A stretch of DNA of 64,000 nt from Candidatus Omnitrophota bacterium (GTDB lineage: Bacteria > Omnitrophota > Gorgyraeia > Gygaellales > Profunditerraquicolaceae): NCBI GenBank assembly GCA_041650495.1, contig JBAZLB010000004.1:39281-103280 (forward strand), in the 5' to 3' direction. This document shows positions 1,195 to 35,073 of the stretch, piece after piece; positions within the stretch are counted from its first letter, which is position 1; every line of letters starts with the position of its first letter. The notes below the pieces were generated by a model. It did not search any database and was not told the origin of the DNA. It saw only the letters and a list, made by a program, of their open reading frames with translations. The translations under genes and the position numbers were made by a program.

Positions 1195-1207
1195 ACAGGA
1201 TCAACCG

Positions 1208-2389: not shown

Positions 2390-2501
2390 TTAGCCCCCGG
2401 GAAATATGACTATCTTTCTAATTTTTTTCATTAAAAAAAGGCATACATCTACGGGAATTACAACCAATACCAAAATGACCGTAAAGAAAATCTTAGAACG
2501 G

Positions 2502-3458: not shown

Positions 3459-3533
3459 TGTACTTGCTAACTCGCTTATTGCTAATCAGCTATTCGATCG
3501 CCATATGGCAGATTTATTTTATTGCCAGGCATG

Positions 3534-7806: not shown

Positions 7807-7820
7807 ATAAACAGCCTAAA

Positions 7821-8828: not shown

Positions 8829-8881
8829 AGGCCCTACGATACCGTCCTTACCATGCAGTGCATTGATAAATACTAACCTAC

Positions 8882-11364: not shown

Positions 11365-11373
11365 GTCTTATTA

Positions 11374-12381: not shown

Positions 12382-12410
12382 ACTGACCCCCTCCTAAACA
12401 CATAGCCATG

Positions 12411-13457: not shown

Positions 13458-13460
13458 GGG

Positions 13461-14456: not shown

Positions 14457-14465
14457 GTCTTATCC

Positions 14466-16199: not shown

Positions 16200-16231
16200 G
16201 GATCGGCCTACTGCGAAGTATGATTATCGTT

Positions 16232-17278: not shown

Positions 17279-17293
17279 GGAAGATATATTATC

Positions 17294-18502: not shown

Positions 18503-18518
18503 GCCATCAGGGATACTT

Positions 18519-20981
18519 TTATTGTTGAATATTCAGTAAATACTTTATGCTTTTTATGACGGTACGCACAAAACCTTTTGATTTTATATTATTCCTAAAG
18601 GCAACCCGTAATTCCCGGTCAAACGGTATATTATAGAAAGAGCGCCGCGAGCGCATATAGTATTTCCACTTCTTCAATGCTTCGTCTTTGGCATGTTCTA
18701 AATCTTCCGGAGAAAGAAATTCGGTTCTGATGACGCTTCTTGATGCCCCGTCATAACAAGACCAGTCTTTCGAGATAATATGCCCCTTCTTTTCCAGCGC
18801 CTCATAATATTCTGTCCCCGGGTAAGGAGTCATAATGGAGAACTGCAGGGAATCAGGCTTAAAACTTAACGCGTAGTCTATTGTCCTTTTTATGGTATCC
18901 TGTGTTTCCCCGGGCAGGCCAAAGGCAAAAGTGAGGTGTATCTTTATCCCTAAGGCTTGAGTCGCATATATCATACGTTCCGCATGCCGCAAATCCATGC
19001 CCTTCTTCGCGTTATCAAGCAGCTTCTGTTCTGCGGACTCTAATCCATACTTTACTGCGTATAATCCGGATTGTTTCATCGCAAGAAGCATTTCTTCATC
19101 CATAGTATCCGCGCGGGCCATAATCGCCCAAGGCACAACCAAGTTTCTCTCCCGGATCTCCCCGCAAAACTTTAATACATTTTCTTTGTCAATATTGAAG
19201 GTATCATCGTCAAAATAAATCGACTTAAAATTACGTTCTTTTACCAGGTATTCCATCTCATCGACAACAGCGGCGGGACTGCGGACCCGGTAGCGGTTGC
19301 TATTATACATGAGCTGCGGCCAGGCGCAAAAAATGCATTGGAAAGGACACCCCCGGCTTGCAACCATCTGAACACTAGGAAAAGCGATCTTCCCGGGCGC
19401 ATCTTTATACCGTTCCATACATAATTGTTCTCTTAATGGCCATGGCAAATCATCCAAATCCTCAAGTAAGGCTCGCGCAGGGGTGATCCTGACAGTATTG
19501 TTTTCCCGATAAAGGATTCCTGATACGCCCTGCAGACTTCTGCCGTTCTGTATGGCTTGGAATAATTCAAATGCCGCGTATTCATATTCACCGACAATAA
19601 CAAAATCTATAAAATTGTTCTCGGCCAGGAAAGATGGCTGCCTGATATTAAAGTCTAGCCCGCAAACAGCTATTTTTGTATGTTTTCCTGATATTTGCTT
19701 TAAGATTTCCAGGTCATTCTTCAAAGAGGGGGTAGAGACCTCCGCAACCAACAGTTCCGGCTCAAGCTCATTCACCAGCCTTACAAATTCTCCTTCTTCG
19801 ATCTGCTCAGCTATGGCGTCAATTATTCTTACGCTAACGCCTCTTTCCAAAAAGACAGCTGCGGAATAAGCCAAAAAGAACGGGAAAGGAAGATACGCCT
19901 CTTCGCCAGCGTCTTTTATATGCGGCCATCGAGACCCTGCCCTGACTCCCCATCTATTCCCCTGTTTCCAAGGCAGGTTTATTAACACTACCTTCACAGG
20001 CTTTAGGACATTCGTTAAATATTTCTTATTCATCTTCTCTTCTATGAATGGCAGCCGTTGGCGGTATAATCTCTTCTTGGAATCAAGCATATGTTGATCG
20101 ATTATTTTTTCATCTTGAATTATGTGTATGCTATTTGACAAAATATTCCGGCTCATGCCAGCCGCATAAAAATCCCGCGGACTATGCGGCTTAACCTGAA
20201 TTAATAATGCGCGTAAATTCGCGCTATAATCACTATTCCTGATAATAGGCCTTATGTCTTCCTTTGGGCTATCCGCCTCCAAAATAATCGCTGGTTTATA
20301 CTCATTATTGCAAAACGTGCTCCGCACTCCCAAAGAACGCGAGGAAAGATTCCAAAAATTTATATCCTGCCATCCTTCTTGCGTAGGTTTTATCGGTGGA
20401 AATGTCCCCCCTTCATAAGAACTTATCCAGCCGGTATAATCTGAAGATACCAAAAGAGCCGCTTCCTTTTCTCCGAGAGAAATATTTCTTTTAGGGGTTA
20501 TGTCTATCTTCCAATCGATAAGCCTCTCTCCTTGCACCGTAATCTGCCAAGACTGTTTAAGCGCAAAGAAAGGCCAGGTGAGTATTATTTCCGTATAACA
20601 AGGCAAAACACGTAGTACCTCCCAGCGCGCCTGATTCGAATATAGCCTGCCGCGCATAAAACGCTTATCATTCAGCACAGTTACAAAACCCGGGGCTTGA
20701 GTAAGCTTTATGTCATTCCAAAATAAATCTATACACCTACGCGCAGGATGAATCGATAACTTTAATCTACCGGCAATTAATAATATTGTCCGGGCGTCTT
20801 CTTGGCAACCAAGCTTAGAACTAATAAACCGCGAGAATATATACCGCAGGCCACCATTACCTATGGTATAGACGATAAACGCAAAGGCGCGATAAAAAGC
20901 ATAGAACACCCCCTTATGGCGAAGGTAATATAAGAATCTTCCGGCTATAAAATTGATAAATCCTTGTTTATGTATTTTCAT
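18519..20981 (-). CDS. B12-binding radical SAM protein (class B) with ~330-aa N-terminal domain of unknown function
   Basis: 820 aa. A B12-binding-like region (VLINLPW...IAVCGLDFN) is followed by ASRGCPFQCIFCAWP (CxxxCxxC). The N-terminal third has no recognisable motif. Confidence 0.7.
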   Translation of the reverse strand: MKIHKQGFINFIAGRFLYYLRHKGVFYAFYRAFAFIVYTIGNGGLRYIFSRFISSKLGCQEDARTILLIAGRLKLSIHPARRCIDLFWNDIKLTQAPGFVTVLNDKRFMRGRLYSNQARWEVLRVLPCYTEIILTWPFFALKQSWQITVQGERLIDWKIDITPKRNISLGEKEAALLVSSDYTGWISSYEGGTFPPIKPTQEGWQDINFWNLSSRSLGVRSTFCNNEYKPAIILEADSPKEDIRPIIRNSDYSANLRALLIQVKPHSPRDFYAAGMSRNILSNSIHIIQDEKIIDQHMLDSKKRLYRQRLPFIEEKMNKKYLTNVLKPVKVVLINLPWKQGNRWGVRAGSRWPHIKDAGEEAYLPFPFFLAYSAAVFLERGVSVRIIDAIAEQIEEGEFVRLVNELEPELLVAEVSTPSLKNDLEILKQISGKHTKIAVCGLDFNIRQPSFLAENNFIDFVIVGEYEYAAFELFQAIQNGRSLQGVSGILYRENNTVRITPARALLEDLDDLPWPLREQLCMERYKDAPGKIAFPSVQMVASRGCPFQCIFCAWPQLMYNSNRYRVRSPAAVVDEMEYLVKERNFKSIYFDDDTFNIDKENVLKFCGEIRERNLVVPWAIMARADTMDEEMLLAMKQSGLYAVKYGLESAEQKLLDNAKKGMDLRHAERMIYATQALGIKIHLTFAFGLPGETQDTIKRTIDYALSFKPDSLQFSIMTPYPGTEYYEALEKKGHIISKDWSCYDGASRSVIRTEFLSPEDLEHAKDEALKKWKYYMRSRRSFYNIPFDRELRVAFRNNIKSKGFVRTVIKSIKYLLNIQQ

Positions 20982-21044
20982 TATGATAAAAAGGCGGTGT
21001 CTATGTTTAACTTTTTGCAGATTCTTTGTGCTTTATCTTATCTT

Positions 21045-21107
21045 TCAACCCACAAGAACCCTATCCGCCACATAATATACTTTAAGCCCCGGTAAAAAGA
21101 GTAACAT
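21045..21107 (-). CDS. Candidate 20-aa small ORF (MLLFLPGLKVYYVADRVLVG) in the only sizeable intergenic gap of the rSAM array
   Basis: ATG preceded by GAGGG at -6 to -10. It lies in the 197-bp gap between the family-B rSAM and the class-B rSAM. There is no Cys and no homolog support. It is a speculative precursor-peptide or leader candidate. Confidence 0.15.
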   Translation of the reverse strand: MLLFLPGLKVYYVADRVLVG

Positions 21108-21178
21108 AAGCCGCCCTCTTTATAATGCTTTTTCCATCTCTGCAATAGTGTTTCTCGCATGGTAAGTATATTTATTTA

Positions 21179-22636
21179 TTACAGGAACTTCTCCAGCGAG
21201 TATCTTTTAATAATCTTGAGCATATGAAGATGCTGATTAATGTTCTCGCAGGAATGGCATTTGTCATCAAATAACTCTTCTCCGCGGACAAACCTAGTCC
21301 CTCCTTCCTGTTCTAAACGTTTTGCTGCAATTCGATACGAATTGTACTCATCAGAGAACCATATAGTATCAAAATCAGATCTTTGCAAGCTGCCGACCAT
21401 TTTGTTTCCGCAGCAAAAAAGAACCTCCCCTGCCGCCTGGATGTTACAGAATACCCACCCTGTTAAGCACCCGTTATCTTTAAAAAAATCCTTCGTCCTT
21501 AACCCATCGCGGTTGTTATAGTAATCCAAATAAATAGTGGATAAATGATCTGTCCTGATCCCGTGGTTTTCTAATTTTTTTATTGACGCTGGCAAGTTAG
21601 TCTTGAGATAATCAACCTGCGGTTCGGTTAATTTAAGATAAGCATTGTGTCCTTCAATCTGAATTGGTTTAAATGTCACCGCATCGACCCCAAGGTCAAT
21701 ATCCATATCCACAAAGCTTGACAAATCGTAACAATTAAGACTATGTATGACATGGGTTATCTGAATCTGGGTCGTCCCTTTTGAGGTGTTTTTATATTCT
21801 ACAAGCGACCTTATATTATGCCTGATCTTTTCAAAATCGCTCATTGGGCTCATTGGGCAGATTTGATGGTATCGCAGCCTAGAGGCAGCAGGAAGGCTAA
21901 CCGTAACAATAGCTATTCCGGAATCAACCATCAGTTTTGAAAGCGCATCATTCATAAAAACCCCGTTGGTCACTGTCTCAAACCCCAAGCCATTATCCCG
22001 GCAGATACGGATAGCATCTTTTATATTCGGGTGCATCAGCGGTTCGCCGTTGGCAAGCAGGCTTATCTGTCGTGTACCTATTTTCTTCGCCCTCACTGCA
22101 ATATTTCTAAACATATCGATACCCATCGTCTGCCGGAGATAGGCGATATCTTTCTCCTGGGTACTCGGCGCATGAATCCAACAATGCAAACAATTAGTAT
22201 TGCATCTATGCAACAAGTCAACGACAACTAAAGACGGGCCGATAAACGTATCTTCACAAATAGCGCCTAGCGCCATTAAAACATCCTGCCTGGTATCGTC
22301 ATCAGTCTCTTTTATCTTGCTTAGACCTAAAAGCAGCTGCGCCAATTCCCGGTCATCCAATAGAATTTGGATACAAAATTTGGAAAGCCTGGCATTCATT
22401 GTACTGATATATTCCATCCAACGCATTAGTATATTATCCGTAGGAAAGACTGAGAAAGGATCGACCTCCTCCACTGCGGGCATTCTTTCGCGTAACAAGC
22501 AATCCAGTCTTAAGAAATTGTATTTATTCGCTCGCAATAATCCTGCCGCTGTTTTGTAAAAACCGCCCTTACTATTAAGGGTACAATGAGAACGCTCTGC
22601 AAATTTGAGGTATCGTGCGGATAAACCAGGCAACAT
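21179..22636 (-). CDS. Radical SAM protein, family B (SPASM-like) with N-terminal extension
   Basis: LHRCNTNCLHCW (CxxxCxxC), ANGEPLMHP. The C-terminus is GCLTGWVFCNIQAAGEVLFCCGN...DDKCHSCEN. Its N-terminal region is alignable to the N-terminus of 3534..5261 (AEHAFIGPQT / CEDTFIGPSL). Confidence 0.75.
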   Translation of the reverse strand: MLPGLSARYLKFAERSHCTLNSKGGFYKTAAGLLRANKYNFLRLDCLLRERMPAVEEVDPFSVFPTDNILMRWMEYISTMNARLSKFCIQILLDDRELAQLLLGLSKIKETDDDTRQDVLMALGAICEDTFIGPSLVVVDLLHRCNTNCLHCWIHAPSTQEKDIAYLRQTMGIDMFRNIAVRAKKIGTRQISLLANGEPLMHPNIKDAIRICRDNGLGFETVTNGVFMNDALSKLMVDSGIAIVTVSLPAASRLRYHQICPMSPMSDFEKIRHNIRSLVEYKNTSKGTTQIQITHVIHSLNCYDLSSFVDMDIDLGVDAVTFKPIQIEGHNAYLKLTEPQVDYLKTNLPASIKKLENHGIRTDHLSTIYLDYYNNRDGLRTKDFFKDNGCLTGWVFCNIQAAGEVLFCCGNKMVGSLQRSDFDTIWFSDEYNSYRIAAKRLEQEGGTRFVRGEELFDDKCHSCENINQHLHMLKIIKRYSLEKFL

Positions 22637-25518
22637 TATGAGCAGTCTCCAAGCATTATTTCACCGTGAAAATAGTGATACTTACCTTCTGCCAGTTTTT
22701 GCTTATCCGTGGCGTTGATACTCTCAAATCCCAACTTTCTGCTTTTGAAGATACGATTTGTATTCTCCACGGTTGCAGTGATGCCGCCAGGGCCGCTAAA
22801 GCAGGAAAAGGACAGGCCGGGTAAAATATCCGCTCCTTGCCCCTGCTGTTTGATGCCAGCGCTCAAGCGGTCAATCTCATCCCGGGCATAAAGAATATCC
22901 CACCGCGATACAGCATAACTATCCGGGAATGATCCGGACATATTATCAGCCGCACGCCAATGGTTATAGATACCGGAAAGCATAATATTAGCCTGTTGTT
23001 TTATTATTGTGGTTGATTCAAAAATCTCCATTTCGACATCCCAAATGAAACCATTTGTTTTATTTTTAACCTCCCATACCTGCACCAAAGGGATATATGG
23101 CCACGTCCCTCGCAGTAACAAACTGTCCTTACGGGAAGCGATTATCTCCCAGCTGGCATCCAAAGAAACGTACCACTGGCCCTGGTTGTTATGTCCTTTC
23201 GAGTAAACCGAGGTATAGAGACCAAAGGCGCTGGTAATTTCTTCGTTGCGATGCTTTATTCTCCCGTTCCCCCGGTCAAAAATAAATATATACGGACCAT
23301 TCTCAATGGTTGATCTTTTACGTACGGACGGGGCAAGACACGAAGATAATTCAACGCCTCTTTTCTCTATAATATACCCCTTCAGATCGGGCTCCGTGCC
23401 AATGGTTATTGAGAAATCCCCGGCTAAATATGAACCTTTAAAATAATTTATTGATTCTTTTGAATCTATACTCATAAAATAAAGGTGGTTTGCTAACTCA
23501 GTATTTCCTGAGGCATCTGCGAATACAGTCGCATTCCAGTCTAACTTTCTTTCCAGAGAATTAAATTTAGGGGGCCGGGAAGCGTCATGTATCAATACCG
23601 CCGGTAAAGCTGCGTTATCCTGCCCTGATGATGTCAAACCAAGGATATGCAGCAAATCATTCTTCATGAGCGTACTCTTAAAATCCTGACCGGTTATATC
23701 TTCACCTGTATCACCGGACTCACTACTGGTAAACCATCCCCGGTAATCCGCAGAAAACATTACTCGAAATTCATTGTTTCTAATTACCGTGTCTTCTAAA
23801 ATCACTAAGCGGACCTGGCAAGTAATGGTATTGTTACCTGCGATTTTAAAATCCCATATTTGTTGTATAGGTAACCCCGGCCATCTGATATAAACCGAAA
23901 GGCGGGCTGCAGAGACCCGGTGTATCATCCAGAAGGCATCGGAACTCTGGTATTCCTTACCTTGGTAATAAAAACTGGTTTTAAACCCCTTTCCGGCGGT
24001 TATCTTTGCCCCTCTCCAGTATAAATGGATCATCTTGTCATTATATGCATGTAACAATACAGTATCGTCCTTGCCTTGAATAATCTTAGGCAACATTAAT
24101 TTAGGAAAATTCTGGAGCCTATGAGTAAGTAAACGTTTGTTTCCAACCATAATTTTCAAGTGAAACAACGTACTTTTTCCGGATTCAAGACTCAAAGATT
24201 GCGCATCAGGATTGATAATACGGGATTGCAAAGCCCGGGCCATAAATACCTGGTTGGTATTATGGACTTCTAATAATTTAGTATCGGTATACACCTCGTC
24301 TATGAAAGCGATCGATGGTAATTGGGAACTAGGCCCTCCAGGCGCATTCAAGCCGATGAAATTAACAGCCGGTATTTGTTTGTCCGCGCATTGCCAAAAA
24401 ATCTCCTCTCTCAAATCGCTTGTCTCAAAGCACCCATTTATGAAAGGATTGAACCACTGCCTATATTCATCCCTTAACATGATACAGGCCGTAAATTCGT
24501 CAATTACACACGCCTGGCGAATATTCATTTCTATTACACAGTCGATTACACCCGCATCATTATCAAAGTATATTTCCCATACCTGCGAAAGCGGTAAATG
24601 CCACATTGTCCCTTCCACAACTATCTTGCTATCATCCCGTTTTCTTAACAGCCAATCTGCCTGAAAAGAACAGTGCTGGTTACCTGCGCTTAATATGGAT
24701 ATGTACCCTCCCAATCCGGCAGTTATTGTATCCTGGCCGAAACTAAACGAGAGTTTCCCATTATTAAAAATAACGCCCAATGAGTCCTTTTGGAGCATGG
24801 CGATGCCCCGCTTATCACCTACCGTCTCCAGGTAATATGAACAAACCTCCCTGATCCCTCCGTCTTGAACCACCTTTCCGTCTTTAAGTAAGACCCCCCT
24901 GGAACAAAAACGTTTCGCTATTTCTAAATTATGAGTAACCAGGATTATCGATTTCCCTTTCTCCTTGAGTTTAAGCATCCTGTCTATGCATTTACGCTGC
25001 GCATACAAATCACCCACAGCAAAGATGTCATCGATCAATAGGATGTCCGGCTCAATGTGTATCGCTATAGCAAACGCCAAGCGCATATACATGCCTTGTG
25101 AATAACTCTTCACGGGCGCATTAATAAACCTACCGAGGGCGGCAAACTCTACTATATCATTAAACCGTGATTTTATCGCATGCTTAGCAAGGCCGAACAG
25201 TGATGAAATAAGGTAAATATTCTCTTTGCCCGTTAACTCCGCATGGAATCCTGCCCCGATATTAAGAAGCGGGGCGATCGTCCCATTGATAAAAACACTG
25301 CCTGTATCAGGCTTAAACATACCGGCGATTATCTTAAGAAGAGTGGTTTTGCCAGCGCCGTTATCGCCGATAATACATACACTCTCTCCTCTTGGAATAT
25401 CTAACGTTACTCCCTGCAATGCCCAGAAGTCTTCCGGGAAGATTTTGTTATCTTCTTTAAAGTCTATTCTGTATTTTAAACCCACGCCCCTTAAAGATAC
25501 TGCATTCATCGATCTCAT
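22636..25518 (-). CDS. ABC transporter ATP-binding protein, Wzt/TagH-like, with ~700-aa C-terminal triple-repeat domain
   Basis: The N-terminal ~240 aa carry Walker A GDNGAGKTTLLK, the signature-region LSGGMYMR-like block YSQGMYMRLAFA, and Walker B ILLIDD. The remaining ~700 aa hold three divergent ~200-aa repeats each containing a W..P.(L/I).Q(V/I)W(E/D) core. The gene start overlaps the upstream stop by 1 nt. Confidence 0.75.
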   Translation of the reverse strand: MRSMNAVSLRGVGLKYRIDFKEDNKIFPEDFWALQGVTLDIPRGESVCIIGDNGAGKTTLLKIIAGMFKPDTGSVFINGTIAPLLNIGAGFHAELTGKENIYLISSLFGLAKHAIKSRFNDIVEFAALGRFINAPVKSYSQGMYMRLAFAIAIHIEPDILLIDDIFAVGDLYAQRKCIDRMLKLKEKGKSIILVTHNLEIAKRFCSRGVLLKDGKVVQDGGIREVCSYYLETVGDKRGIAMLQKDSLGVIFNNGKLSFSFGQDTITAGLGGYISILSAGNQHCSFQADWLLRKRDDSKIVVEGTMWHLPLSQVWEIYFDNDAGVIDCVIEMNIRQACVIDEFTACIMLRDEYRQWFNPFINGCFETSDLREEIFWQCADKQIPAVNFIGLNAPGGPSSQLPSIAFIDEVYTDTKLLEVHNTNQVFMARALQSRIINPDAQSLSLESGKSTLFHLKIMVGNKRLLTHRLQNFPKLMLPKIIQGKDDTVLLHAYNDKMIHLYWRGAKITAGKGFKTSFYYQGKEYQSSDAFWMIHRVSAARLSVYIRWPGLPIQQIWDFKIAGNNTITCQVRLVILEDTVIRNNEFRVMFSADYRGWFTSSESGDTGEDITGQDFKSTLMKNDLLHILGLTSSGQDNAALPAVLIHDASRPPKFNSLERKLDWNATVFADASGNTELANHLYFMSIDSKESINYFKGSYLAGDFSITIGTEPDLKGYIIEKRGVELSSCLAPSVRKRSTIENGPYIFIFDRGNGRIKHRNEEITSAFGLYTSVYSKGHNNQGQWYVSLDASWEIIASRKDSLLLRGTWPYIPLVQVWEVKNKTNGFIWDVEMEIFESTTIIKQQANIMLSGIYNHWRAADNMSGSFPDSYAVSRWDILYARDEIDRLSAGIKQQGQGADILPGLSFSCFSGPGGITATVENTNRIFKSRKLGFESINATDKQKLAEGKYHYFHGEIMLGDCS

Positions 25519-25534
25519 CCCGTGTGTACGTGCC

Positions 25535-26317
25535 TCAGATTTGTTTTAAAGCATCCTTCTCTTTTTTCGTGAATATGTAATGGCCCAGCCATATGCTCGC
25601 CAAGCTAAATCCAAACGCAAACAACCACATAACGCTGTCTCCTTTTGAGCCGTTATAAAGTATAGCGCGATAAAGAAGGGTATAACAGGTAGCTGGATTT
25701 GCAATCATAATAACCTGATGCCCCTTTGAGATACTTTCTAAAGGGTAAAATATGGGGGTCAACCAAAATAAAAACATTAAACCAATATTCAATAACTGCG
25801 CTAAATCCTTATAATAGAGATTACCGATGCTTACCATGAGCGATATGCCCAATGTAAAAACAAAGTGGAGCAGCAGGACGAGCGGCAATAATGCTAAGGA
25901 ATTTATGATTCTGGTATTACATAGAATAAAAACGGGCAAGAGACCTATAAAACCAACTAAAAAATTTACAAAGTTTGCTAAAACCACCGAGAGGGGTATT
26001 GCCTCATTCATAATAACGAACTGATTTAATACGGCACTATTATTCTTAATGGAAACTGCCGCTTCTGATAATGAGTTTGCAAAGAAAGACCAGGCCAAGA
26101 GAGCACTCAATATAAAAAGGGGGAAATTACTTATCCGGGTAGGCATTATTTGTGTGAAAACGAAGTTAATGGCACACATAATAAGCAGGGGATTAAGAAC
26201 TGCCCAAAAAATACCTATGGTAGAGCCAATATATTTATCACTTAAATTACGCTGCACCAGGCTCTTAATTACGTTTTTCTGTGCGCTTATCTTAACAAGT
26301 TTATCTCGTAGAGTCAT
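25535..26317 (-). CDS. ABC-2 type transporter permease (Wzm/TagG-like)
   Basis: 260 aa with 6 predicted TM helices in the ABC-2 arrangement. It lies directly upstream of the Wzt-like ATPase. Confidence 0.7.
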   Translation of the reverse strand: MTLRDKLVKISAQKNVIKSLVQRNLSDKYIGSTIGIFWAVLNPLLIMCAINFVFTQIMPTRISNFPLFILSALLAWSFFANSLSEAAVSIKNNSAVLNQFVIMNEAIPLSVVLANFVNFLVGFIGLLPVFILCNTRIINSLALLPLVLLLHFVFTLGISLMVSIGNLYYKDLAQLLNIGLMFLFWLTPIFYPLESISKGHQVIMIANPATCYTLLYRAILYNGSKGDSVMWLFAFGFSLASIWLGHYIFTKKEKDALKQI

Positions 26318-27015
26318 TGGTAAATATGAAAATACTCCTTTAAAATAGCGGATGCAATATTCTCCGCTAAAAGCCGATTTCCTTTTTTAGTACAATGCCC
26401 GAAGTTTCCTGCGAACATATCAACAAAATACTCTCTGTAGCTTTCTCTTTTTATTGCCTTCTGAAAGATCCCCTCATTATCTACAAAGATGATACCGTCT
26501 TGCTGTCCAGCAAAGATCCCCTTTAATGATGCCAAACTCCGAAGCGGATACTGGACACAAACCAATTGTATTTTATTTTTACTTAATATTCCCCTGATCT
26601 TATGGTAATTGCTATATGTCTTTGTCGTAATATTATGCCTAAAAAGTTTATCAACTTTTTTGGCATATTTACTCGCTACAGTATCCATCCCCATTTCATT
26701 GTATACTACAGCCAGCCCCCCATACGCATAATCTTGCAACGGATCTACCTTGGCCGCCTGGTTAAATGTCTCTATAGCCAAAGTAAACTTCCTTTCGGAA
26801 ACATAGTTTTCGCCTAATACAACATACGCCCAATAGTCTCTCGGATCCAGCTCTATGGCTTGTTTTAGCGACACCTCGGATGCCGGATATTTCCCCTGGT
26901 ATCTATAACACTGCCCCAACAAAAAATACGCTTTGCCGTTTTCCGGATTTAAGGCAACGGCTTTCTTCAATGCCTCTTCGGCGTCTGGATAATTATAATT
27001 ATAGATAAACGCCAT
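26314..27015 (-). CDS. C-terminal part of a split SGNH-TPR protein (TPR repeats plus SGNH block V)
   Basis: TPR-like repeats (AEEALKKAVALNPENGKAYFLLGQCY...). The C-terminus carries FVDMFAGNFGHCTKKGNRLLAENIA, which resembles SGNH block V (DxxH). The frame stays open for ~19 codons upstream of its ATG into the preceding ORF region. Confidence 0.5.
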   Translation of the reverse strand: MAFIYNYNYPDAEEALKKAVALNPENGKAYFLLGQCYRYQGKYPASEVSLKQAIELDPRDYWAYVVLGENYVSERKFTLAIETFNQAAKVDPLQDYAYGGLAVVYNEMGMDTVASKYAKKVDKLFRHNITTKTYSNYHKIRGILSKNKIQLVCVQYPLRSLASLKGIFAGQQDGIIFVDNEGIFQKAIKRESYREYFVDMFAGNFGHCTKKGNRLLAENIASAILKEYFHIYQ

Positions 27016-27068
27016 CGCTAAACCTATATAGGCCTCATCATTCTGAGGGTTTATCTCTATTTTCTTCT

Positions 27069-28121
27069 TTAATAGGCTTCTATTTCAGTAATCTTGCCTC
27101 TGTCCCTATAAATCCGTACCAGCTCAAGATATGGCCGAGGATCTTCCGGGCCACTCTCTATAGCTTTCTGCAGTGGCTCCTCCGCAGGAAAATATCTGCC
27201 TTGGTCGATATAGCATCTCCCCAATAGAAAATATGCCATATCATTTTTCGGATTCAACACAAGAGCCCTTTTAAGGGCATCCTCCGCTTCACGGTATCGA
27301 CCCTGGGAATGATAAAGTTGAGCTAACTCAATATATATTACATCGTAACCCGGCCTCAGTATTAGAGCTTTTTGCAGCAGCCTTTCATATTGGATATAGT
27401 CTCCTAGGTCGCGATATCCCCGCCCTAAACCAATATATTCTTCTGCCTGCTCTTTGTTGACATCTTGTGCGCCGCGCATAGAATCTCCATAACTAAAATA
27501 ATTGCCGCGCTTAATATAACTCTTACGTGGATCACTGAGGCCGGAAATGGGCGGAAACCCGTTTATCTCTTGCACGCTGGGGATCCGACAAGCCAGTTTT
27601 TTCGCCATAACATGCTCCCTCAACAGTATCAATAATTTATAGACCTTCAAAGACTGCAGATAAGAAATTATTTTATCTTCCGATGTTCGTTGGTTCACAA
27701 TATGCCTGGACCTATCGTTGATACCAAGCATCGCCACCACTATATCTGGTTTATACTTCGCAATGTTTTCTTCTAAATGCAAAGCTACATATGAAGTATC
27801 AATATCAGGAATGCCTTTATTAATTACACTAAATCTTAATCCTTTATTATTTTGATTTAATACAACTTCGAGTTGACTGGGGTAGCAACTTTCGCCGCCT
27901 ATCGCATACGCAGTCGTCGATTCCCCAACGCACATAATGCGATATGAGCTTTTCTGCTGCAGAGAAATCCTGTTTCTTCCTTCCTGTAAAGATGAAAATA
28001 TAAAACCTGCTAAACGCATCCCGGCCTCCAGAAAGACAACGCCAAGGCATATCCCTGCGATAATAAGTGCTGTCTTCTGGCAGAGAGATATAGCGGACGT
28101 ATGAGTATTATTACAGCGCAT
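27069..28121 (-). CDS. N-terminal part of a split SGNH-TPR protein (TM anchor, SGNH blocks I-III, TPR repeats)
   Basis: TM helix. Block I is IMCVGESTTAY, block III is VAMLGINDRS, followed by TPR repeats (YIGLGRGYRDLGDYIQYERLLQKALILRP...). It stops at 27069-27071, whereas the downstream TPR/SGNH-block-V ORF is open in another frame from about 27072. This suggests a frameshift (true pseudogene, sequencing error or recoding). Confidence 0.5.
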   Translation of the reverse strand: MRCNNTHTSAISLCQKTALIIAGICLGVVFLEAGMRLAGFIFSSLQEGRNRISLQQKSSYRIMCVGESTTAYAIGGESCYPSQLEVVLNQNNKGLRFSVINKGIPDIDTSYVALHLEENIAKYKPDIVVAMLGINDRSRHIVNQRTSEDKIISYLQSLKVYKLLILLREHVMAKKLACRIPSVQEINGFPPISGLSDPRKSYIKRGNYFSYGDSMRGAQDVNKEQAEEYIGLGRGYRDLGDYIQYERLLQKALILRPGYDVIYIELAQLYHSQGRYREAEDALKRALVLNPKNDMAYFLLGRCYIDQGRYFPAEEPLQKAIESGPEDPRPYLELVRIYRDRGKITEIEAY

Positions 28122-28277
28122 TGATCGCTCGATATGACAGGTCAGCCATTTGTACCACTAACAAGGCGAGAGAGATTTTCTCTTTTGTAAAGCCGATCTT
28201 ATACAGCCGAGGTCGAATAAAATTTTTGGGATTGTTGCTGTTCGGAAGAATAATGTGTAACCCCATGAAAATATATC

Positions 28278-29100
28278 CTAGCAGGCAATAAAAGGTAAGT
28301 GGAGCAATATGCTGAATAATGATTCGTTCTTAATAATCGTTCGATAGCGGTTTTTTATTAAATCAGCGTACAATTCATTGCTAAGATATCTGCGTGCATA
28401 CGTTTTATTGATGCCCGACGCCGTCCGGACGCTGGCACCACGCATATGGTACGCCACAGCATCAGGTATATAATAAGCCTTCCAGCCCATATTGTAAGCC
28501 CGCCAAGCGATATCTAAATCCTAATAAAAGAATCGAAAGTCACTATCAAAATATTCAACCCCCATTTTGAGGTCTTCCAGCATCGCTCTACGATAAAAAG
28601 CAACTGCTCCGCTTACTCCGAATATATACCCTGCGCGATTGTAAAGTTGCCCTTTTTTAGTGCCGTAGCCCCTTTCCCGGACTGAACGATACAGATTCAA
28701 CGATAATCCGGTACTATCTAACGTTATCCCGTCAAAACGAAAGACTTTGCCATCCACCATGCCAATCTTTGAGCTAACAGTAAAACCAATAATTGCTTTT
28801 TCAATAAATTTTTCATCTAAAATGACATCGTCATTAAGACAAAGAATAAAGTCCCCGTTACTCTGGCTGATTCCACAATTTAACCCTACGCAGTAGGATT
28901 TTTTCTCGGCATCCGTATACACAGTAACTTCCGGATAATGACGGTGTATGCTTTGGCTGACCTCGGGGTTACATGCATTATCAACAACGATGATTTCGTG
29001 AAAAGAGTGTGTCTGGACACATAATGAGTCTCAACATGATTCCCAGCAACGAAATGCTCCGGAGGTAACAACAATACTTACTTTCCTGTTTGAGCCTTCC
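28278..29100 (-). pseudogene. Disrupted GT2-family glycosyltransferase (three or more frame fragments)
   Basis: Three consecutive minus-strand ORF fragments in different frames. The 5-prime piece starts MTQEGSNRKVSIVVTS..., the middle piece has LNCGISQSNGDFILCLNDDVILD (DxD region), and the 3-prime piece has GWKAYYIPDAVAYHMRGAS (GT2 C-terminal motif). Confidence 0.6.
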
Positions 29101-29666
29101 TGTGTCATAGACTATAAATCTTACGATTATGTTTATTGTAGAAATGTACGCAGGCTGATCTCACTTGAAGAATCGCCTCTTCCATAAGCCCTCTGCGGCT
29201 ACCCCCGGTTTAACATATGGATATCGCTATTATCAGTAATATGCAAAAACCATGCGCTGAGAAACGTTTATGCGTTTCCGCCCCCTTCAGGATATAATCT
29301 GCCGGGAGTTGATGCTTCAGAACAAGATAAAATAAGCAGCAATATTTCAACGGGCTTACGATTATTTTACCACCAAAAACTGCATTATTAAATTAAAAAC
29401 TTTACTGAAAAGACGAGGGCACGGGAAAAATCAGAGGATTTTTACCGGAAGGGCTCAAACCGGTCCGAACTGATGAGAGGGATTATAACTACTTGCAATT
29501 ACACAAGATACATCGCTTTAAAATGAGATTGACAATAAAGAGAAAATTTTGCAGCGATCACGAAACAGGATTGTCCGTCTTGTCAGTATTTTTCTTTCTA
29601 AAATCACGTAGCTCTTTAATATGTAAACAGTAACACATTGTCTACCGCAAAAAACGGACATTTAAC

Positions 29667-30938
29667 TCATTTACTCCAAATCAACCAAACAAACAAAGAA
29701 GCAGTTATAACGGCAACAAGGGTAAACGGCAAGCCTATCTTAAGAAACTGGTTGAATTTAACAATATGCCCTTCTTTTTTTAAAATACCGCATGCGACTA
29801 TATTGGCTGAAGCGCCAATCGGCGTTATATTTCCCCCTACGCTTGCGCCGATAAGAAGACCAAATAATAAAAGCGAAGGATTAATCGCCAACCGGCTAGA
29901 CATGGAAAGAGCTACCGGGAGCATCGCGGCGAGAAAGGGGACATTGTCTATAAAGGCAGAAAAAAGAACAGCAAAAAAAACAAACATGACATAGCCGAGT
30001 AATAGGTTTATCCCCACTAAACCAGACAAAAACTTTGAAAAATAACTAACCCAGCCATTAACAGTAAGCGCCCCCACAATAACAAATACTCCCACCAAAA
30101 ACAAACTCGTATCCCAATCTAATGATCTGATACTTTTTAATATAAATCCCCGTTTGAAAAACTTCTCGTAGGATAACGATGCTATCCCAAATAGCATACA
30201 AATCAATCCCCCCATATAACTGAATCCGGTATCAAAAAAAGATGAAATTGCCAAAGAAAAAATCATAAGAAGTAAAATAAACGTAGGGACCCATGATTTC
30301 ACCTGCTCTGTTTTAAGCAGCTGCGTTCTTTCCTTGTGGCGCCTAAATATAAAATACAACACAACAAAAGATGCTATCGCGCCTAATTCAACGGCAAAAA
30401 AGATACTTGGTCTTCCCCTATAGACAAAAAAATCCATAAAATTCATTTTGGCAAAACCACCCAGAAGCATACTTGGGGGGTCCCCGATCAACGTAGCCGC
30501 ACCCTGAAGATTGCTCGAAATAGCAACCCCGATCATTATATTCATAGGATTGATCTTTAGCTTATGAGATAAAGTAAGCGCAATAGGAGCAACGATTAAA
30601 ACTGTCGCCACATTTTCTACAAAAGCAGAAATAAAACTAGTGAGCACGCATATAGCTACCATAGCCCAGGCGGTATTTCTTGCACGGTTAACAATTATTT
30701 CTGCAATATACGCCGGTACTCTGCTTTCCATAAAAGTATCCGCAACAACCAATGTGCCAATAAATATCCCCATGACGTTCCAATTAATCGCCCCCAAGGC
30801 TTCTTGGAAAGTAACGGCCGTGGTTACCACAAGTAGGATACTTGCCCCAAAAGCAACAAAAGACCTTCGGGCAGGGAATACCACAAATAAAATGTAAGCT
30901 GTCAGGAAGACTGCTAATGTAAGGATACTTTTATCCAT
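29667..30938 (-). CDS. ArsB/NhaD-superfamily anion permease (CitMHS/ArsB-like transporter)
   Basis: 423 aa with about 11-12 TM helices. Internal motifs ISSNLQGAATLIGDPPSMLLGG and GASVGGNITPIGASANIV are typical of the ArsB/NhaD permease fold. Confidence 0.6.
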   Translation of the reverse strand: MDKSILTLAVFLTAYILFVVFPARRSFVAFGASILLVVTTAVTFQEALGAINWNVMGIFIGTLVVADTFMESRVPAYIAEIIVNRARNTAWAMVAICVLTSFISAFVENVATVLIVAPIALTLSHKLKINPMNIMIGVAISSNLQGAATLIGDPPSMLLGGFAKMNFMDFFVYRGRPSIFFAVELGAIASFVVLYFIFRRHKERTQLLKTEQVKSWVPTFILLLMIFSLAISSFFDTGFSYMGGLICMLFGIASLSYEKFFKRGFILKSIRSLDWDTSLFLVGVFVIVGALTVNGWVSYFSKFLSGLVGINLLLGYVMFVFFAVLFSAFIDNVPFLAAMLPVALSMSSRLAINPSLLLFGLLIGASVGGNITPIGASANIVACGILKKEGHIVKFNQFLKIGLPFTLVAVITASLFVWLIWSK

Positions 30939-30949
30939 AATACTGTCAA

Positions 30950-31096
30950 TTACTGGTTTGTTTCGGAAGGTTTATTTTGCTCTTTCTTATTCTTCTTATC
31001 CTGCATATTACCTTTTACAATTACATACCCAAAAAAGAATACTATAACACCTAAAAACACATACACCGGCCAATCCTGCCATAAGTTTCCAGTCAT
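30950..31096 (-). CDS. Small membrane protein, 48 aa (MTGNLWQDWPVYVFLGVIVFFFGYVIVKGNMQDKKNKKEQNKPSETNQ)
   Basis: Not in the ORF track (<60 aa). Strong RBS (GAGGAGG 8 nt upstream of ATG). One TM helix plus a Lys-rich tail. It sits between rnfA and the permease and ends 12 nt before the permease start. Confidence 0.4.
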   Translation of the reverse strand: MTGNLWQDWPVYVFLGVIVFFFGYVIVKGNMQDKKNKKEQNKPSETNQ

Positions 31097-31131
31097 ACTT
31101 AAAACCTCCTCATTAGTCTAGTCCGCTTGAA

Positions 31132-31740
31132 CTAAAATTTGAAACCATTAAACCCCATAAATGCAAGGCTCATTATAGAAGCAATGATAAATGCCAAAGG
31201 TAAAATCTTGAATGCCTTGGGCGGATTACAAAGCTCAAGCCGCTCCCTAATACCTGACATCAAAAGCATGGCCAGGGTATAGCCTATCCCAACGCATAAT
31301 CCCTGGAATACCGAAAATATGAAGCCCCCGGATACTGTCTTACTGTTTACAAAGAACATATCGACATTGAGAACCGCTACGCCTAATACGGCGCAGTTCG
31401 TAGTAATCAAAACAAGATAAATACCGAAGGCGCGATAAAGAGCGGGGCTCGTCTTTCTTATTATCATTTCCACCAGTTGCACAAAAGCAGCAATGATTAG
31501 GATAAAGACTAAGGTACGCAAATATGTCAATTGAAACGGGATCAAAAGAAACTTGTAGACTAACCACGTTATAGCAGAAGATATTGTGGTTACAAACGTA
31601 ACTGCCATACTCATCGCAAACGCCTGCCTTGTGTCTTTAGATATGGCGACAAAAGGACACAGTCCCAAGAAACGCGACAGAATAACATTGTTAATAAAAA
31701 CTGCTGAAATAAAAATAGTTAAAAGCTGCGCAGAATTCAT
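31132..31740 (-). CDS. rnfA: Rnf/Nqr family membrane subunit, RnfA/RsxA-like
   Basis: 202 aa. FLGLCPFVAISKDT...TNCAVLGVAVLN...SLAFMGFNG closely follows the RnfA/NqrE consensus (FLGLCPF, TNCAVLG, LAFMGF). No other rnf genes are in the window. Confidence 0.8.
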   Translation of the reverse strand: MNSAQLLTIFISAVFINNVILSRFLGLCPFVAISKDTRQAFAMSMAVTFVTTISSAITWLVYKFLLIPFQLTYLRTLVFILIIAAFVQLVEMIIRKTSPALYRAFGIYLVLITTNCAVLGVAVLNVDMFFVNSKTVSGGFIFSVFQGLCVGIGYTLAMLLMSGIRERLELCNPPKAFKILPLAFIIASIMSLAFMGFNGFKF

Positions 31741-31744
31741 TTTC

Positions 31745-31873
31745 TTACTTTTTCATGCCATTTAATCTTGCTTTTTCATTTCTTGCCTTTATATTGTTCC
31801 TAGTAGTAAACAGCAGTGAGAATAAAATCGCAAGAACAATAACCCCTAACTGTTCTAATATGCTCGTTGACAC
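31745..31873 (-). CDS. Small membrane protein, 42 aa, GTG start (VSTSILEQLGVIVLAILFSLLFTTRNNIKARNEKARLNGMKK)
   Basis: AGGAGGGG RBS 5 nt upstream of GTG. One TM helix. The stop lies 4 nt before the rnfA ATG. It is missed by the ATG-only ORF track. The overlapping plus-strand ORF 31755..32048 is rejected. Confidence 0.35.
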   Translation of the reverse strand: MSTSILEQLGVIVLAILFSLLFTTRNNIKARNEKARLNGMKK

Positions 31874-32147
31874 AGGCCCCTCCTATTTTCTAAGTCGATT
31901 TAATGTCTTGGAATCTTTCCCGCCCAGGCCTTTTCTAAATATCCTGCTGAAACAAAATATCAGCATACTCAAAATAAATGTCCACGAGATTATCATGAAT
32001 ATCCATCCGCTTAATTTCAATCCACACCCCCTTCATCGGATATTATGAGTAATCGCAAAAGCCACACACAATATCCCAGTTGAAATACAGACTTCCATTA
32101 TAATAAATATAACCGCCTTCCTTTATCCATGCCTCTCCTTTATTAAT

Positions 32148-32228
32148 AAAAAACCGCCACCTGACTTTAAAAGCCAGATGGCGGCCCGACCATCCAAGTC
32201 CTCCGGAAATATACCCTTCCGGACCCTT
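32148..32228 (-). terminator. Conserved two-hairpin element, copy A; distal hairpin plus U6 is an intrinsic terminator for treT
   Basis: Minus-strand RNA: hairpin UCCGGAA-GGGUAUA-UUCCGGA, then conserved core GAUGGUCGGGCCGCCAUCU, then hairpin CCGCCAUCUG/CAGGUGGCGG (10 bp with 1 G-U) followed by UUUUUUAUU. Confidence 0.7.
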
Positions 32229-32313
32229 GCATTAACAAGAAAACCGCTATGTGATAACTTTTAAACGATTTTCAGCGGTTGGAATTCCAGTTTTTGAAAT
32301 TCCATGCTATGAA

Positions 32314-33528
32314 TTAACAGAGATGAACGATATCTTCAGGATGATATAACGAAAGAAACAATAACATATAATCTCTTAAATGACGCGTAATCAGAAAATT
32401 ATTTTTTATATGCTCCCGACCGTTCTCTCCCAGTTTCTTGGCGTATTCGGGACTACTTAACAGCTGTTTTATGGCAAAACTGGCCCCCTCAACAGAATGG
32501 CACAATAATCCTGAATATTTATGTTTTATTTGCAAAGGGATGCCTCCCACATTTGAAGCAATAACTGGTTTTGCTTTCCATAAGGCCTCTGCTACGGTTA
32601 AACCAAAGCCCTCCCGAAGAGACTTTTGGATAATTACATCCGAAGACCTTTGCAACGCATTAACCTCTATATCATTATGAGGTAATAGTAAAATATGGAT
32701 ACCGGGGTCGTTCTTAGCTTTTTCTCTGACTTCACCGAGGACCTTGAATCCTTCCGGGTCATCCCCTGCGGTGCCGCCAGCCAACACCAGCTGGCAATCA
32801 GTATATTTTTTTACCTGCAGGTATGCTTCAATTACGCCTATCGGATCCTTTAGACGGTCAAAGCGGGATACTTGGGTGATGATCGGCTTATCTTTTTTGA
32901 TATTATATTTTTTCAAGACCGCATCTATTGTTTCCTGAGGCAATTCTTTGTTTTTATCGCTTAAGGGGTCAATGGAAGGAGAAATTAGAAATTGCCTAAT
33001 GGGTAATTTCCGGGAAAAGGCAGGGGCAGAAAACACTGCGGAATCGTATTGAGTGATAAAATCCATAAGAAATCCCCAGACCCTTTCATCAGGATTAGAT
33101 ACGTCAATATGGCAGCGCCAAAGCCATTTGTTAGCGGCTTTCTTTTTTATCAGGGCTATTGGCTGCGGGTCATGGACAAAAACTATATCTCCATAGGTAT
33201 CAACATTATCGATATTCTCCCGGCTTGTCTGCATAAATATCTCAAAATCTCTTTGAGTTATTTCTTCGGCCTTGCCGTGTAAGGCGTTATGAAACTTCTT
33301 TGTCACATCAAAGAACTGCTCTCCGCCTTTTATGACGTCCCATTTCGTATCTACGCCTAATTCCACGAGCAGCGGGACCATACGGTTCAATATCTCGGCA
33401 ACTCCACCACCTACAGGAGTAGAATTTATATGCTGGATAACCTTGCCTTTTAACCGCTCGCCAAGCAATCTTAAATCGTCAATAATAGACTGCCCTACCA
33501 AAGGAATATATTTTTCTATCTCTGTCAT
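32314..33528 (-). CDS. treT: Trehalose synthase (nucleotide-sugar:glucose trehalose glycosyltransferring synthase, GT4)
   Basis: 404 aa. HINSTPVGGGVAEILNRMVPLLVELGVDTKWDVIKGGEQFFDVTKKFHNALHG matches the conserved TreT N-terminal block. The C-terminus has the GT4 E-x7-E region. Confidence 0.7.
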   Translation of the reverse strand: MTEIEKYIPLVGQSIIDDLRLLGERLKGKVIQHINSTPVGGGVAEILNRMVPLLVELGVDTKWDVIKGGEQFFDVTKKFHNALHGKAEEITQRDFEIFMQTSRENIDNVDTYGDIVFVHDPQPIALIKKKAANKWLWRCHIDVSNPDERVWGFLMDFITQYDSAVFSAPAFSRKLPIRQFLISPSIDPLSDKNKELPQETIDAVLKKYNIKKDKPIITQVSRFDRLKDPIGVIEAYLQVKKYTDCQLVLAGGTAGDDPEGFKVLGEVREKAKNDPGIHILLLPHNDIEVNALQRSSDVIIQKSLREGFGLTVAEALWKAKPVIASNVGGIPLQIKHKYSGLLCHSVEGASFAIKQLLSSPEYAKKLGENGREHIKNNFLITRHLRDYMLLFLSLYHPEDIVHLC

Positions 33529-33529
33529 T

Positions 33530-34201
33530 TTATTGCGAAATTCTTCTTTCGATTATTTGGATAATCGTTTTCCTTAAATCCTCTAAAGTGCGCGTATAGG
33601 GGTCAAAGCCGGCAATAGCATCTCCCAATTCTTTATCGCCTAAAGAATTCTCTATCCAAAACGAGAAGTCATTGGTTGGTTTCTCAAGCCTAAGCCGCGC
33701 CTCAAAAATATGAAAATAAATCGAATCTATGGTGATTTTCTTCAGGATATCCGCAAATTCCTTTAAATCATAGGCAGTATAATTTTTCGGCAGAATAAAA
33801 CTGACTGATTTGATAAAATGGAATTCTTCTCCGGGACGCGCGAATTTTAATTTGGCAAATGAGCTGCCGCTTAAATATTCCTCAATAGTTTGCGCGATCT
33901 TGTCCCGCAGGCTGCGTATAGTTGAATATTGCATAGTGTCAATGCTGGCTAATTTTTCTCCGAGCTCATCTTCTCCCAGGATATCCGTTACCCAATATGC
34001 AAAGTCATTCGGGGGTTCGGGAGAAAGATATTGGTGTTGTTGCAAGAATCTATGGGTGTGGTGATAGATGCATGAACCAGGCACTTCCTTAATAAGAGCC
34101 AACAATTGGCCCAAGGTGGCGGCTCGTAATCCAGTCAGCTCTGACAAGTGCAATCTCGTGCAAAACCTAAATGGCTCTTTGGTTCTTATTAATTCTGTCA
34201 T
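33530..34201 (-). CDS. Hypothetical protein with internal duplication, co-clustered with trehalose genes
   Basis: 223 aa. Two ~90-aa repeats: NDFAYWVTDILGEDELGEKLASIDTMQYSTIRSLRDKIAQTIEE and NDFSFWIENSLGDKELGDAIAGFDPYTRTLEDLRKTIIQIIE. Its stop lies 2 nt from the treT start. Confidence 0.5.
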   Translation of the reverse strand: MTELIRTKEPFRFCTRLHLSELTGLRAATLGQLLALIKEVPGSCIYHHTHRFLQQHQYLSPEPPNDFAYWVTDILGEDELGEKLASIDTMQYSTIRSLRDKIAQTIEEYLSGSSFAKLKFARPGEEFHFIKSVSFILPKNYTAYDLKEFADILKKITIDSIYFHIFEARLRLEKPTNDFSFWIENSLGDKELGDAIAGFDPYTRTLEDLRKTIIQIIERRISQ

Positions 34202-34203
34202 AA

Positions 34204-35073
34204 TTAGTTATGTTTTAAGTCCAATATTAAACGTAAAAACCGAGTTACCTCTTCCGGGCCCTTCAGGTAATAGCCCGCCTTGGAGCTACCCGGCTCTCCC
34301 ACAAATACCGTCAGCCCTTTTCTTTTTAATACCTTAAAAGCGTCTTCATCGGTTACATCGTCTCCTATATACACAGGAAAAACCATTTTTTTCCCCAAGG
34401 CGGATTGCTGCCTTGTCAAAAGCCATAAGACAACCTTACCCTTATCCCATTCAACAGGGGGTTTTATCTCATAAACCTTTTTACCGGGATTAACCTTTAT
34501 CTTATCGCGCACTATATAAGGGGTAGTGACTTCGGCAATGATCTTCTCAAACGCAGGCAGATCTTTTTTGGCGACTAAACGATAGTGGATACTTAAGGTT
34601 AATCCTTTGTCCTCAACCAACGCGCCTTTGATGCCTGAAATCTGCTTTTGTATTTCCGCGGCAATATTCCGCATAATTGATTTTAACCGCGGGGAAACCT
34701 GGCTTTCAAATTTCATCTTTGGACCTTCGATTTCCAGGCCGTGGTTACCCGCATAAATAACGCCTTCTATCCCCATAACATTCTTTATGTCCTCCAAAGA
34801 CCTGCCGCTGATAATGCCTAACTTGCAATAATCACTTCTGGACAGCTTCTGCAATAATTCTTTGGTTTCTTTAGAGATAACTGCCTTCTTAGGGTCTTCT
34901 ACAATCGGGGTTAATGTCCCGTCGTAATCCAACAAAAGTAAAATAAAATTACTACATAATTGTTCATTTATTTTACTAAATTTAGTAAACAAATACTCCA
35001 CGCTTAAACCCCGCTCCTGCCTAACTAAACCTTCTTCAATGCTGTTAATTCCGTGATTATGTTGCCCGCCCAA
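34204..35073 (-). CDS. otsB: Trehalose-6-phosphate phosphatase (HAD family)
   Basis: LLLDYDGTLTPIV (HAD motif I DxDGT), K...GDDVTDEDAF (motif III). 289 aa. Confidence 0.8.
   Translation of the reverse strand: MGGQHNHGINSIEEGLVRQERGLSVEYLFTKFSKINEQLCSNFILLLLDYDGTLTPIVEDPKKAVISKETKELLQKLSRSDYCKLGIISGRSLEDIKNVMGIEGVIYAGNHGLEIEGPKMKFESQVSPRLKSIMRNIAAEIQKQISGIKGALVEDKGLTLSIHYRLVAKKDLPAFEKIIAEVTTPYIVRDKIKVNPGKKVYEIKPPVEWDKGKVVLWLLTRQQSALGKKMVFPVYIGDDVTDEDAFKVLKRKGLTVFVGEPGSSKAGYYLKGPEEVTRFLRLILDLKHN

Follow-up and report, generated by a model that had tools for sequence, protein, structure and literature searches.

Two open reading frames (ORFs) of a Candidatus Omnitrophota bacterium are halves of one gene that encodes a 602-amino-acid (aa) protein. 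They lie on the minus strand of the window analysed here, a 64,000-nucleotide stretch of contig JBAZLB010000004.1 (assembly GCA_041650495.1, contig positions 39,281 to 103,280); coordinates below are positions in this window. The intact gene specifies an SGNH-type enzyme with a predicted N-terminal membrane anchor and an array of tetratricopeptide repeats (TPRs) nested in the catalytic fold. Taken together, the results are very probably explained by one anchored, nested SGNH-TPR gene that was split by a deletion private to this assembly. An initial annotation of the DNA had already proposed a single enzyme of about 600 aa split by a frameshift, and this proposal is upheld by the length of the repaired product, by single-chain homologs (119/119) and by an intact allele in two other assemblies.

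Two ORFs encode one protein

Both ORFs of the initial annotation were confirmed at their coordinates on the minus strand (Table 1). Three-frame translation placed the downstream ORF in the -1 frame relative to the upstream ORF. The upstream ORF encodes, in order, a hydrophobic N-terminal anchor, C-V-G-E-S-T-T, K-G, G-I-N-D and TPRs, and terminates ...RGKITEIEAY-stop at TAA 27071..27069. The -1 frame opens right after a TGA and reads NRSLLKKKIEINPQNDEAYIGLAMAF..., such that 23 open codons precede the downstream ATG (NRSLLKKKIEINPQNDEAYIGLA). About 19 had been estimated initially, which is the number obtained when counting from LKKK. The stretch open in both frames is limited to GAAATAGAAGCCTATTAA. 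The downstream ORF contains TPRs 5-8 followed by the SGNH C module (beta-4, beta-5 and block V), and ends with G-N-F-G-H-C-T-K-K-G-N-R-L-L-A-E-N-I-A. The motifs first reported for the pair, a transmembrane (TM) anchor, block I, GINDRS and TPRs, were all present.

When the repaired fusion was used as a query, over 100 homologs of 411-816 aa were retrieved, each a single chain, with 94-100% query coverage and 33-46% identity; most were from Candidatus Omnitrophota. The homolog set used below consists of 119 non-self sequences; the alignment of 120 includes the window copy. Co-occurrence of the two halves was examined by BLAST using the non-TPR N module (aa 1-215) and the C module (aa 486-602) as queries. 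In 119/119 homologs the N module is found at the N-terminus and the C module at the C-terminus of one polypeptide. The junction is spanned by the best high-scoring segment pair (HSP) in 112/119 homologs, and the alignment across it with the 600-aa homolog P0006 is free of gaps (YRDRGKITEIEAYLKKKIEINPQNDEAY vs YRDQGQFQQAEEYFKKTLELNPRNDRAY). Since the repaired protein aligns over the junction without gaps and the HSP spans it in nearly all homologs, a chance arrangement is not credible. The cluster at 90% identity that holds both window ORFs also holds an intact 568-aa protein, P0123, from ENA and Logan. P0123 corresponds to the intact product with Met35 taken as its start; its sequence reads ...EIEAVLKKKIEINPQ....

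The NCBI annotation lists the fragments as two separate "tetratricopeptide repeat proteins" (MFA5090205.1 and MFA5090204.1) on a 191,743-bp contig common to NCBI and JGI. As annotated, one gene would specify an anchored half-SGNH-TPR protein and the other a soluble TPR-half-SGNH protein, the two acting independently or reassembling. However, the comparison with intact orthologs that had been recommended at the outset revealed no ortholog with two genes at the window boundary (0/119 homologs). Furthermore, the boundary lies within a TPR helix, each half is short of core strands and catalytic residues of the fold, and no clear Shine-Dalgarno sequence precedes the downstream ATG. The two-gene reading was rejected on the basis of the orthologs and the fold, and we give it essentially no credence.

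In the gene calls of JGI, ENA and Logan the gene begins at Met35 (window 28121..28020 as compared with P0122 and P0123), which removes the anchor. G23, E32, R36 and G39 in the anchor region are each at least 90% conserved in the family. Because the Met35 calls cut off this family-conserved segment, the true start is likely the ATG at 28121.

Table 1. Coordinates of the SGNH-TPR gene, its parts and neighbouring genes in the window, and of structural elements in the model of homolog P0018
Feature	Position	Strand	Remarks
Whole SGNH-TPR gene	26314..28121	-	Intact allele 602 aa; interrupted here by 1-bp deletion
Upstream fragment	27069..28121	-	350 aa; MFA5090205.1; TM anchor, beta-1 to beta-3, blocks I-III, TPRs 1 to ~3.6
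Downstream fragment	26314..27015	-	233 aa; MFA5090204.1; residues 370-602 of intact protein
Premature TAA stop	27069..27071	-	Product of the frameshift
Deletion site	27074..27075	-	One coding-strand G (C on + strand) missing between these positions
N-terminal hydrophobic membrane anchor, ~aa 17-39	28005..28073	-	TM-like segment found at ~aa 10-39
SGNH block I, C-V-G-E-S-T-T	27912..27932	-	GxSxT type; Ser68 nucleophile at 27920..27918
SGNH block II, Gly103	27813..27815	-	Oxyanion hole
SGNH block III, G133-I-N135-D136	27714..27725	-	GINDRS is aa 133-138
Nested TPR array, ~aa 229-495	26638..27437	-	~8 repeats; TPR families well above cut-offs
SGNH C module, aa 496-602	26317..26637	-	beta-4 (VCVQYP), beta-5 (IFVDNE), block V, last helix
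SGNH block V, G-N-F-G-H-C-T	26389..26409	-	Asn573 at 26406..26404; His576 at 26397..26395
ABC-2 type exporter permease	25535..26317	-	PF01061; ATG overlaps SGNH-TPR stop (ATGA)
GT2 glycosyltransferase pseudogene	28278..29084	-	156 bp upstream of SGNH-TPR gene; one frame
Ordinary contiguous SGNH gene	14456..13461	-	
Ordinary contiguous SGNH gene	3458..2502	-	
Long N-terminal helix	P0018 model 6-55		
Strands beta-1, beta-2, beta-3	P0018 model 60-66, 95-99, 125-129		Before TPR array
Helix after block III	P0018 model 151-167		
Linker	P0018 model 165-188		Low confidence
TPR helices	P0018 model 191-392		
Strands beta-4, beta-5	P0018 model 396-400, 420-423		After TPR array
Terminal helix	P0018 model 455-471		

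A single missing base splits the gene

Comparison with the intact allele revealed the lesion as the loss of one G, from GAAGCC-G-TATTAAAG to GAAGCC-TATTAAAG. The codons GCC-GTA-TTA-AAG (A-V-L-K) thereby become GCC-TAT-TAA (A-Y-stop) within repeat 4 of the TPR array. A frameshift had been placed near 27015-27072; the change of frame was confirmed in the sequence, and its site at 27075/27074 falls three bases outside that range. The accompanying suggestion of a homopolymer indel failed, as the missing base is a lone G between CC and TA and the site contains no homopolymer. The two alleles are distinguished in window 27,000-27,150 by the junction strings GCCGTATTA and GCCTATTA.

The intact allele was found on ENA contig ERZ27247363 k141_822032 (172,052 bp) and Logan contig SRR8542065_325526 (25,065 bp). 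Locus L001 (21,707 bp) matches window 38019..16314 with 0 mismatches and 1 gap; when locus base 10946 (G) is removed there are 0 mismatches over 21,706 bases. L002 shows the same gap, with the G present, and one mismatch 12 bases from its own end. Loci L007 and L008 carry 100% identity on to window position 1, save for a copy difference in a 225-bp tandem repeat near window 7011-7126 with three repeat-associated mismatches. The same-strain comparison thus covers window 38019 to 1 (~38 kb), over which there are no isolated single-nucleotide polymorphisms (SNPs) and the deleted G is the sole single-base difference. The break is private to this assembly. As two same-strain assemblies keep the G and the frame, it characterizes neither the gene family nor the organism as a whole.

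A scan of JGI metagenome contigs with the junction patterns of both alleles gave 0 matches. It also missed the window's own sequence and is therefore uninformative on allele frequency. In the 225-bp repeat region, the ENA assembly has one extra unit (75 codons, in frame) in an 862-aa TPR gene (ORF 5218..7806, minus strand), which is either collapse or expansion of the repeat during assembly or real copy-number variation.

A recent null allele is weighed against assembly error

Programmed -1 ribosomal frameshifting or transcriptional slippage, which the initial annotation had entertained as a cause, would restore the full-length protein. The short two-frame overlap GAAATAGAAGCCTATTAA and a small 5-bp hairpin about 20 nt downstream (27048..27033) are compatible with such an event. 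However, the overlap contains neither an X-XXY-YYZ slippery heptamer nor an A or T run of at least 7, and 0/119 homologs need a shift, all being single ORFs. The same strain also has an in-frame allele with one extra base at the exact site. Programmed frameshifting was rejected on these grounds as extremely improbable. Promoter and terminator scans around the junction found none above background.

We lean slightly toward a genuine null allele that is not fixed in the population, that is, a very recent inactivation. The site is not a homopolymer and not error-prone. In addition, all three assemblies show the adjoining GT2 glycosyltransferase gene as a pseudogene. Its single frame is interrupted by two internal stops, TGA (29033..29031) and TAG (28523..28521), the latter in place of a conserved acidic residue of the FFxEDxD motif. 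Since the three assemblies agree in every base of this gene, the decay of GT2 is real, which makes loss of function at this locus plausible.

Pure assembly or consensus error, in which case the deletion exists in no DNA molecule of the sample and the intact 602-aa gene is the organism's only version, is a serious contender that we place somewhat below an even chance. It is favored by the occurrence of the deletion in one assembly, the other two being intact and lacking isolated SNPs over the compared region. It is opposed by the nature of the site, which is neither homopolymer nor repeat, and by the true decay of the adjacent GT2 gene. Contigs built from short reads on a de Bruijn graph contain only k-mers that occurred in the reads. 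If the present contig is of this type, the deletion k-mers came from reads.

Conversely, the gene could be a pseudogene fixed in the organism, with erroneous "intact" versions in the other assemblies. The neighboring GT2 pseudogene and the replacement of the triad Asp by Asn agree with this possibility. It would demand that two different assemblers add an identical base at one and the same site, which is very unlikely, and that base restores the family-consensus frame (AEEYFKK vs IEAVLKK). We regard a fixed pseudogene as very improbable.

The TPR array is nested in an SGNH fold

The full-length protein matched Pfam profile PF13472 over positions 1-97 of 178 only, scoring 31.8 bits (cut-off 32.9). 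When aa 173-496 were removed in silico, the score rose to 34.6 bits, and PF00657 was matched over positions 18-208 of 208 with 24.9 bits (cut-off 23.6). Homolog P0018, with its TPRs removed, matched PF00657 over positions 1-207 with 32.1 bits.

The structure was modeled with AlphaFold2 on P0018 (481 aa, 48% identical) from a 121-sequence alignment (pLDDT, the predicted local distance difference test, 88.3; pTM, the predicted template modelling score, 0.83). The model predicts a single alpha/beta/alpha domain with five parallel strands, the arrangement by which SGNH membership is recognized (Table 1). The array itself consists of tandem 34-residue helix-turn-helix repeats that match TPR profiles, with an xNP motif at a strict 34-residue period from residue 255 to 459 of the window protein.

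Natural members of the family differ in the length of the array. P0237 (304 aa) is devoid of TPRs: its anchor, blocks I-III and the next helix lead through a short linker straight into the C module. In P0140 (349 aa) the array comprises about two TPRs, in other family members at least 15. Because P0237 joins both modules directly, and the repeat number varies from there to about two and to at least 15, these repeats form an insert whose length varies and which separates the helix after block III from strand beta-4. P0237 and P0140 are also convenient minimal constructs for biochemistry. The initial annotation called a TPR insertion in an SGNH fold unusual. This holds when the protein is compared with characterized SGNH enzymes; within its own large family the insertion is a defining common trait.

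Catalytic residues are conserved and divided by the frameshift

G66, S68, T69, T70 and G103 are invariant in the alignment (120/120). N135 and D136 are each present in 117/120 sequences and His576 in 119/119. The GxSxT form of block I has been noted for GDSL/CE3 enzymes (PMC9487903). Membership in the SGNH/GDSL superfamily is supported. As initially proposed, the catalytic residues are divided over the frameshift, with Ser68, Gly103 and Asn135 in the upstream ORF and Asn573 and His576 in the downstream ORF.

The DxxH-like block V of the initial annotation is present and its His is conserved. DxxH is the family consensus; the window copy has NxxH, with Asn573 at the Asp position in both alleles. 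Among the 120 aligned sequences this position is D in 104, N in 8 (window copy included) and E in 3. Asp106, beside block II, is unique to the window copy.

The family is large and often found in tandem arrays

A search specific for the C module recovered 2,422 clusters at 50% identity (E <= 1e-3), or 1,844 at E <= 1e-10. The C module is located at the protein C-terminus in 150/150 of the best matches listed. A scan of species-representative genomes found at least 418 loci, mainly in Omnitrophota. Other taxa among the loci listed are Elusimicrobiota, Firestonebacteria, Margulisiibacteriota, Sumerlaeota and metagenome-assembled genomes (MAGs) of the PVC group. One homolog, P0021, was already tagged by an automated pipeline as "PilF/lysophospholipase L1-like esterase".

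Neighborhood counts are based on 78 fetched family loci. Two or more copies occur within 8 kb in 24/78. One Omnitrophota locus, L004 (JGI 3300036886 Ga0334826_000133, 1..21797), has at least 10 consecutive SGNH-TPR paralogs of 520-919 aa. L005/L006 carries at least five family members adjoining a PMT_2 glycosyltransferase (GT-C), a DegT aminotransferase and a B12-radical-SAM enzyme. B12-radical-SAM neighbors were observed in 20/78 loci. Large neighbors without Pfam matches in L004 and L005 were considered as conserved partners and rejected, as they turned out to be further family members. A 1068-aa neighbor in L005 combines GDSL, TPR and Phosphodiest domains.

Genomic neighborhood

The SGNH-TPR gene and the ABC-2 permease gene are probably co-translated, because the stop of the former and the start of the latter overlap (ATGA). 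The permease is followed by genes for a 960-aa ABC ATPase, about ten radical-SAM/SPASM/B12 enzymes and a 577-aa membrane protein, and further by two ordinary contiguous SGNH genes, a large TPR protein and a GT1 glycosyltransferase. Window 1208..26317 (minus strand) is a long co-directional locus in which unusually many radical-SAM enzymes lie beside a glycan-type exporter. The ABC ATPase has a C-terminal extension of about 700 aa without a Pfam match. The 577-aa ORF (14466..16199, minus strand) also has no Pfam match; its TM-like segments (at least 8) indicate a polytopic membrane protein, and no relatives of it were found in the 78 family loci.

Proposed function and relation to known systems

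The catalytic domain resembles the GDSL-2 or carbohydrate esterase family 3 (CE3) type of the SGNH/GDSL superfamily. Similarity to CE3-type structures is marginal, the best PDB phmmer E-value being 0.006. CE3-type enzymes such as C. thermocellum Ces3-1 (PDB 2VPT) and T. cellulolyticus AE206 (PDB 5B5S) are contiguous soluble domains of about 200 aa. In contrast, the domain of the present family is anchored, and a stretch of 0 to more than 15 TPRs separates the helix following block III from beta-4.

In function, the nearest known protein is TviD, the Vi-antigen O-acetyltransferase. It combines an SGNH domain with TPRs, is encoded in an ABC-transporter capsule locus, and binds a glycosyltransferase through its TPRs (PMC8760489). 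The analogy is one of function, and the two proteins are set apart by description. The TPRs of TviD are C-terminal, whereas those of the window family are nested. TviD uses a Cys nucleophile, lacks canonical blocks II/III and has no N-terminal TM anchor; the window protein has Ser, canonical blocks II/III and the predicted anchor. Assignment to the TviD type was rejected on account of the Ser nucleophile, the canonical blocks and the nested TPRs. In the periplasmic O-acetylation machinery for polysaccharides of the alginate and peptidoglycan systems (AlgX/AlgJ with AlgK; PatB), the SGNH and TPR functions reside on different polypeptides. That machinery needs an MBOAT or AT3 partner as acyl donor, and none was identified in the window.

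No characterized member of the SGNH-TPR sub-family was found in the literature, and neither the SGNH review (PMC9487903) nor literature searches described a TPR array nested in an SGNH fold. The frameshift is ordinary and the combination of SGNH and TPR in one protein is already known from TviD.

From motifs and gene context we propose, at a little under even confidence, that the intact protein is a membrane-tethered esterase or transferase. It would remove or transfer short acyl (acetyl) groups on a glycan or envelope polymer that the products of the neighboring exporter and glycan genes handle. The TPRs may serve as a scaffold that binds a partner enzyme or this polymer. Differences in repeat number among paralogs may tune reach or specificity. 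A real deletion would abolish activity, leaving the Ser, Gly and Asn on an anchored fragment and the His and two core strands on an unanchored one. It would probably also weaken translation of the overlapping ABC-2 permease gene.

Several points weigh against the reading developed here. The structure was modeled on P0018, a 48%-identical homolog, not on the window protein. Because Asn573 replaces the triad Asp and Asp106 is unique to this copy, even the intact allele could have reduced activity. By analogy with TviD, in which the DxxH Asp is dispensable and Asp-to-Ala is tolerated (PMC8760489), Asn for Asp need not abolish activity, though it stays a caveat. The membrane topology call is ambiguous, as Lys plus Arg counts around the anchor are similar (3.5 before vs 4.1 after). 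ABC-2 exporter adjacency was observed in only 3/78 family loci, and since it is not conserved, a function deduced from exporter context is weak. Finally, the three assemblies are independent as software runs and may share the same or overlapping read sets.

A broader reading, which we consider unlikely at present, is that these proteins form an undescribed class of anchored SGNH enzymes with a nested TPR arm of 0 to more than 15 repeats. The class would have expanded in Omnitrophota and in uncultured phyla related to them, giving runs of about ten or more tandem paralogs. They might constitute an acyl-editing toolkit for envelope glycans of the cell itself, its host or its prey. In that case the population would be segregating a real on/off null allele, namely the deletion.

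Significance

The public record lists two TPR proteins where one gene for an SGNH-type enzyme carries a one-base lesion. Users of this MAG should regard the SGNH-TPR gene as either intact in the strain or polymorphic. The consequence extends beyond a single gene, as about two thousand 50%-identity clusters with the nested SGNH-TPR architecture are labelled only as TPR proteins; the Pfam GDSL profile falls just under its cut-off because the domain is interrupted. Members of the family are candidate membrane-tethered acyl-esterases or transferases, often found in large tandem arrays beside glycan-synthesis genes. They may make envelope chemistry open to experimental tests in Omnitrophota and Elusimicrobiota, two phyla of which few or no members have been cultured, and they offer a clean natural example of a variable-length repeat array tolerated within a catalytic fold.

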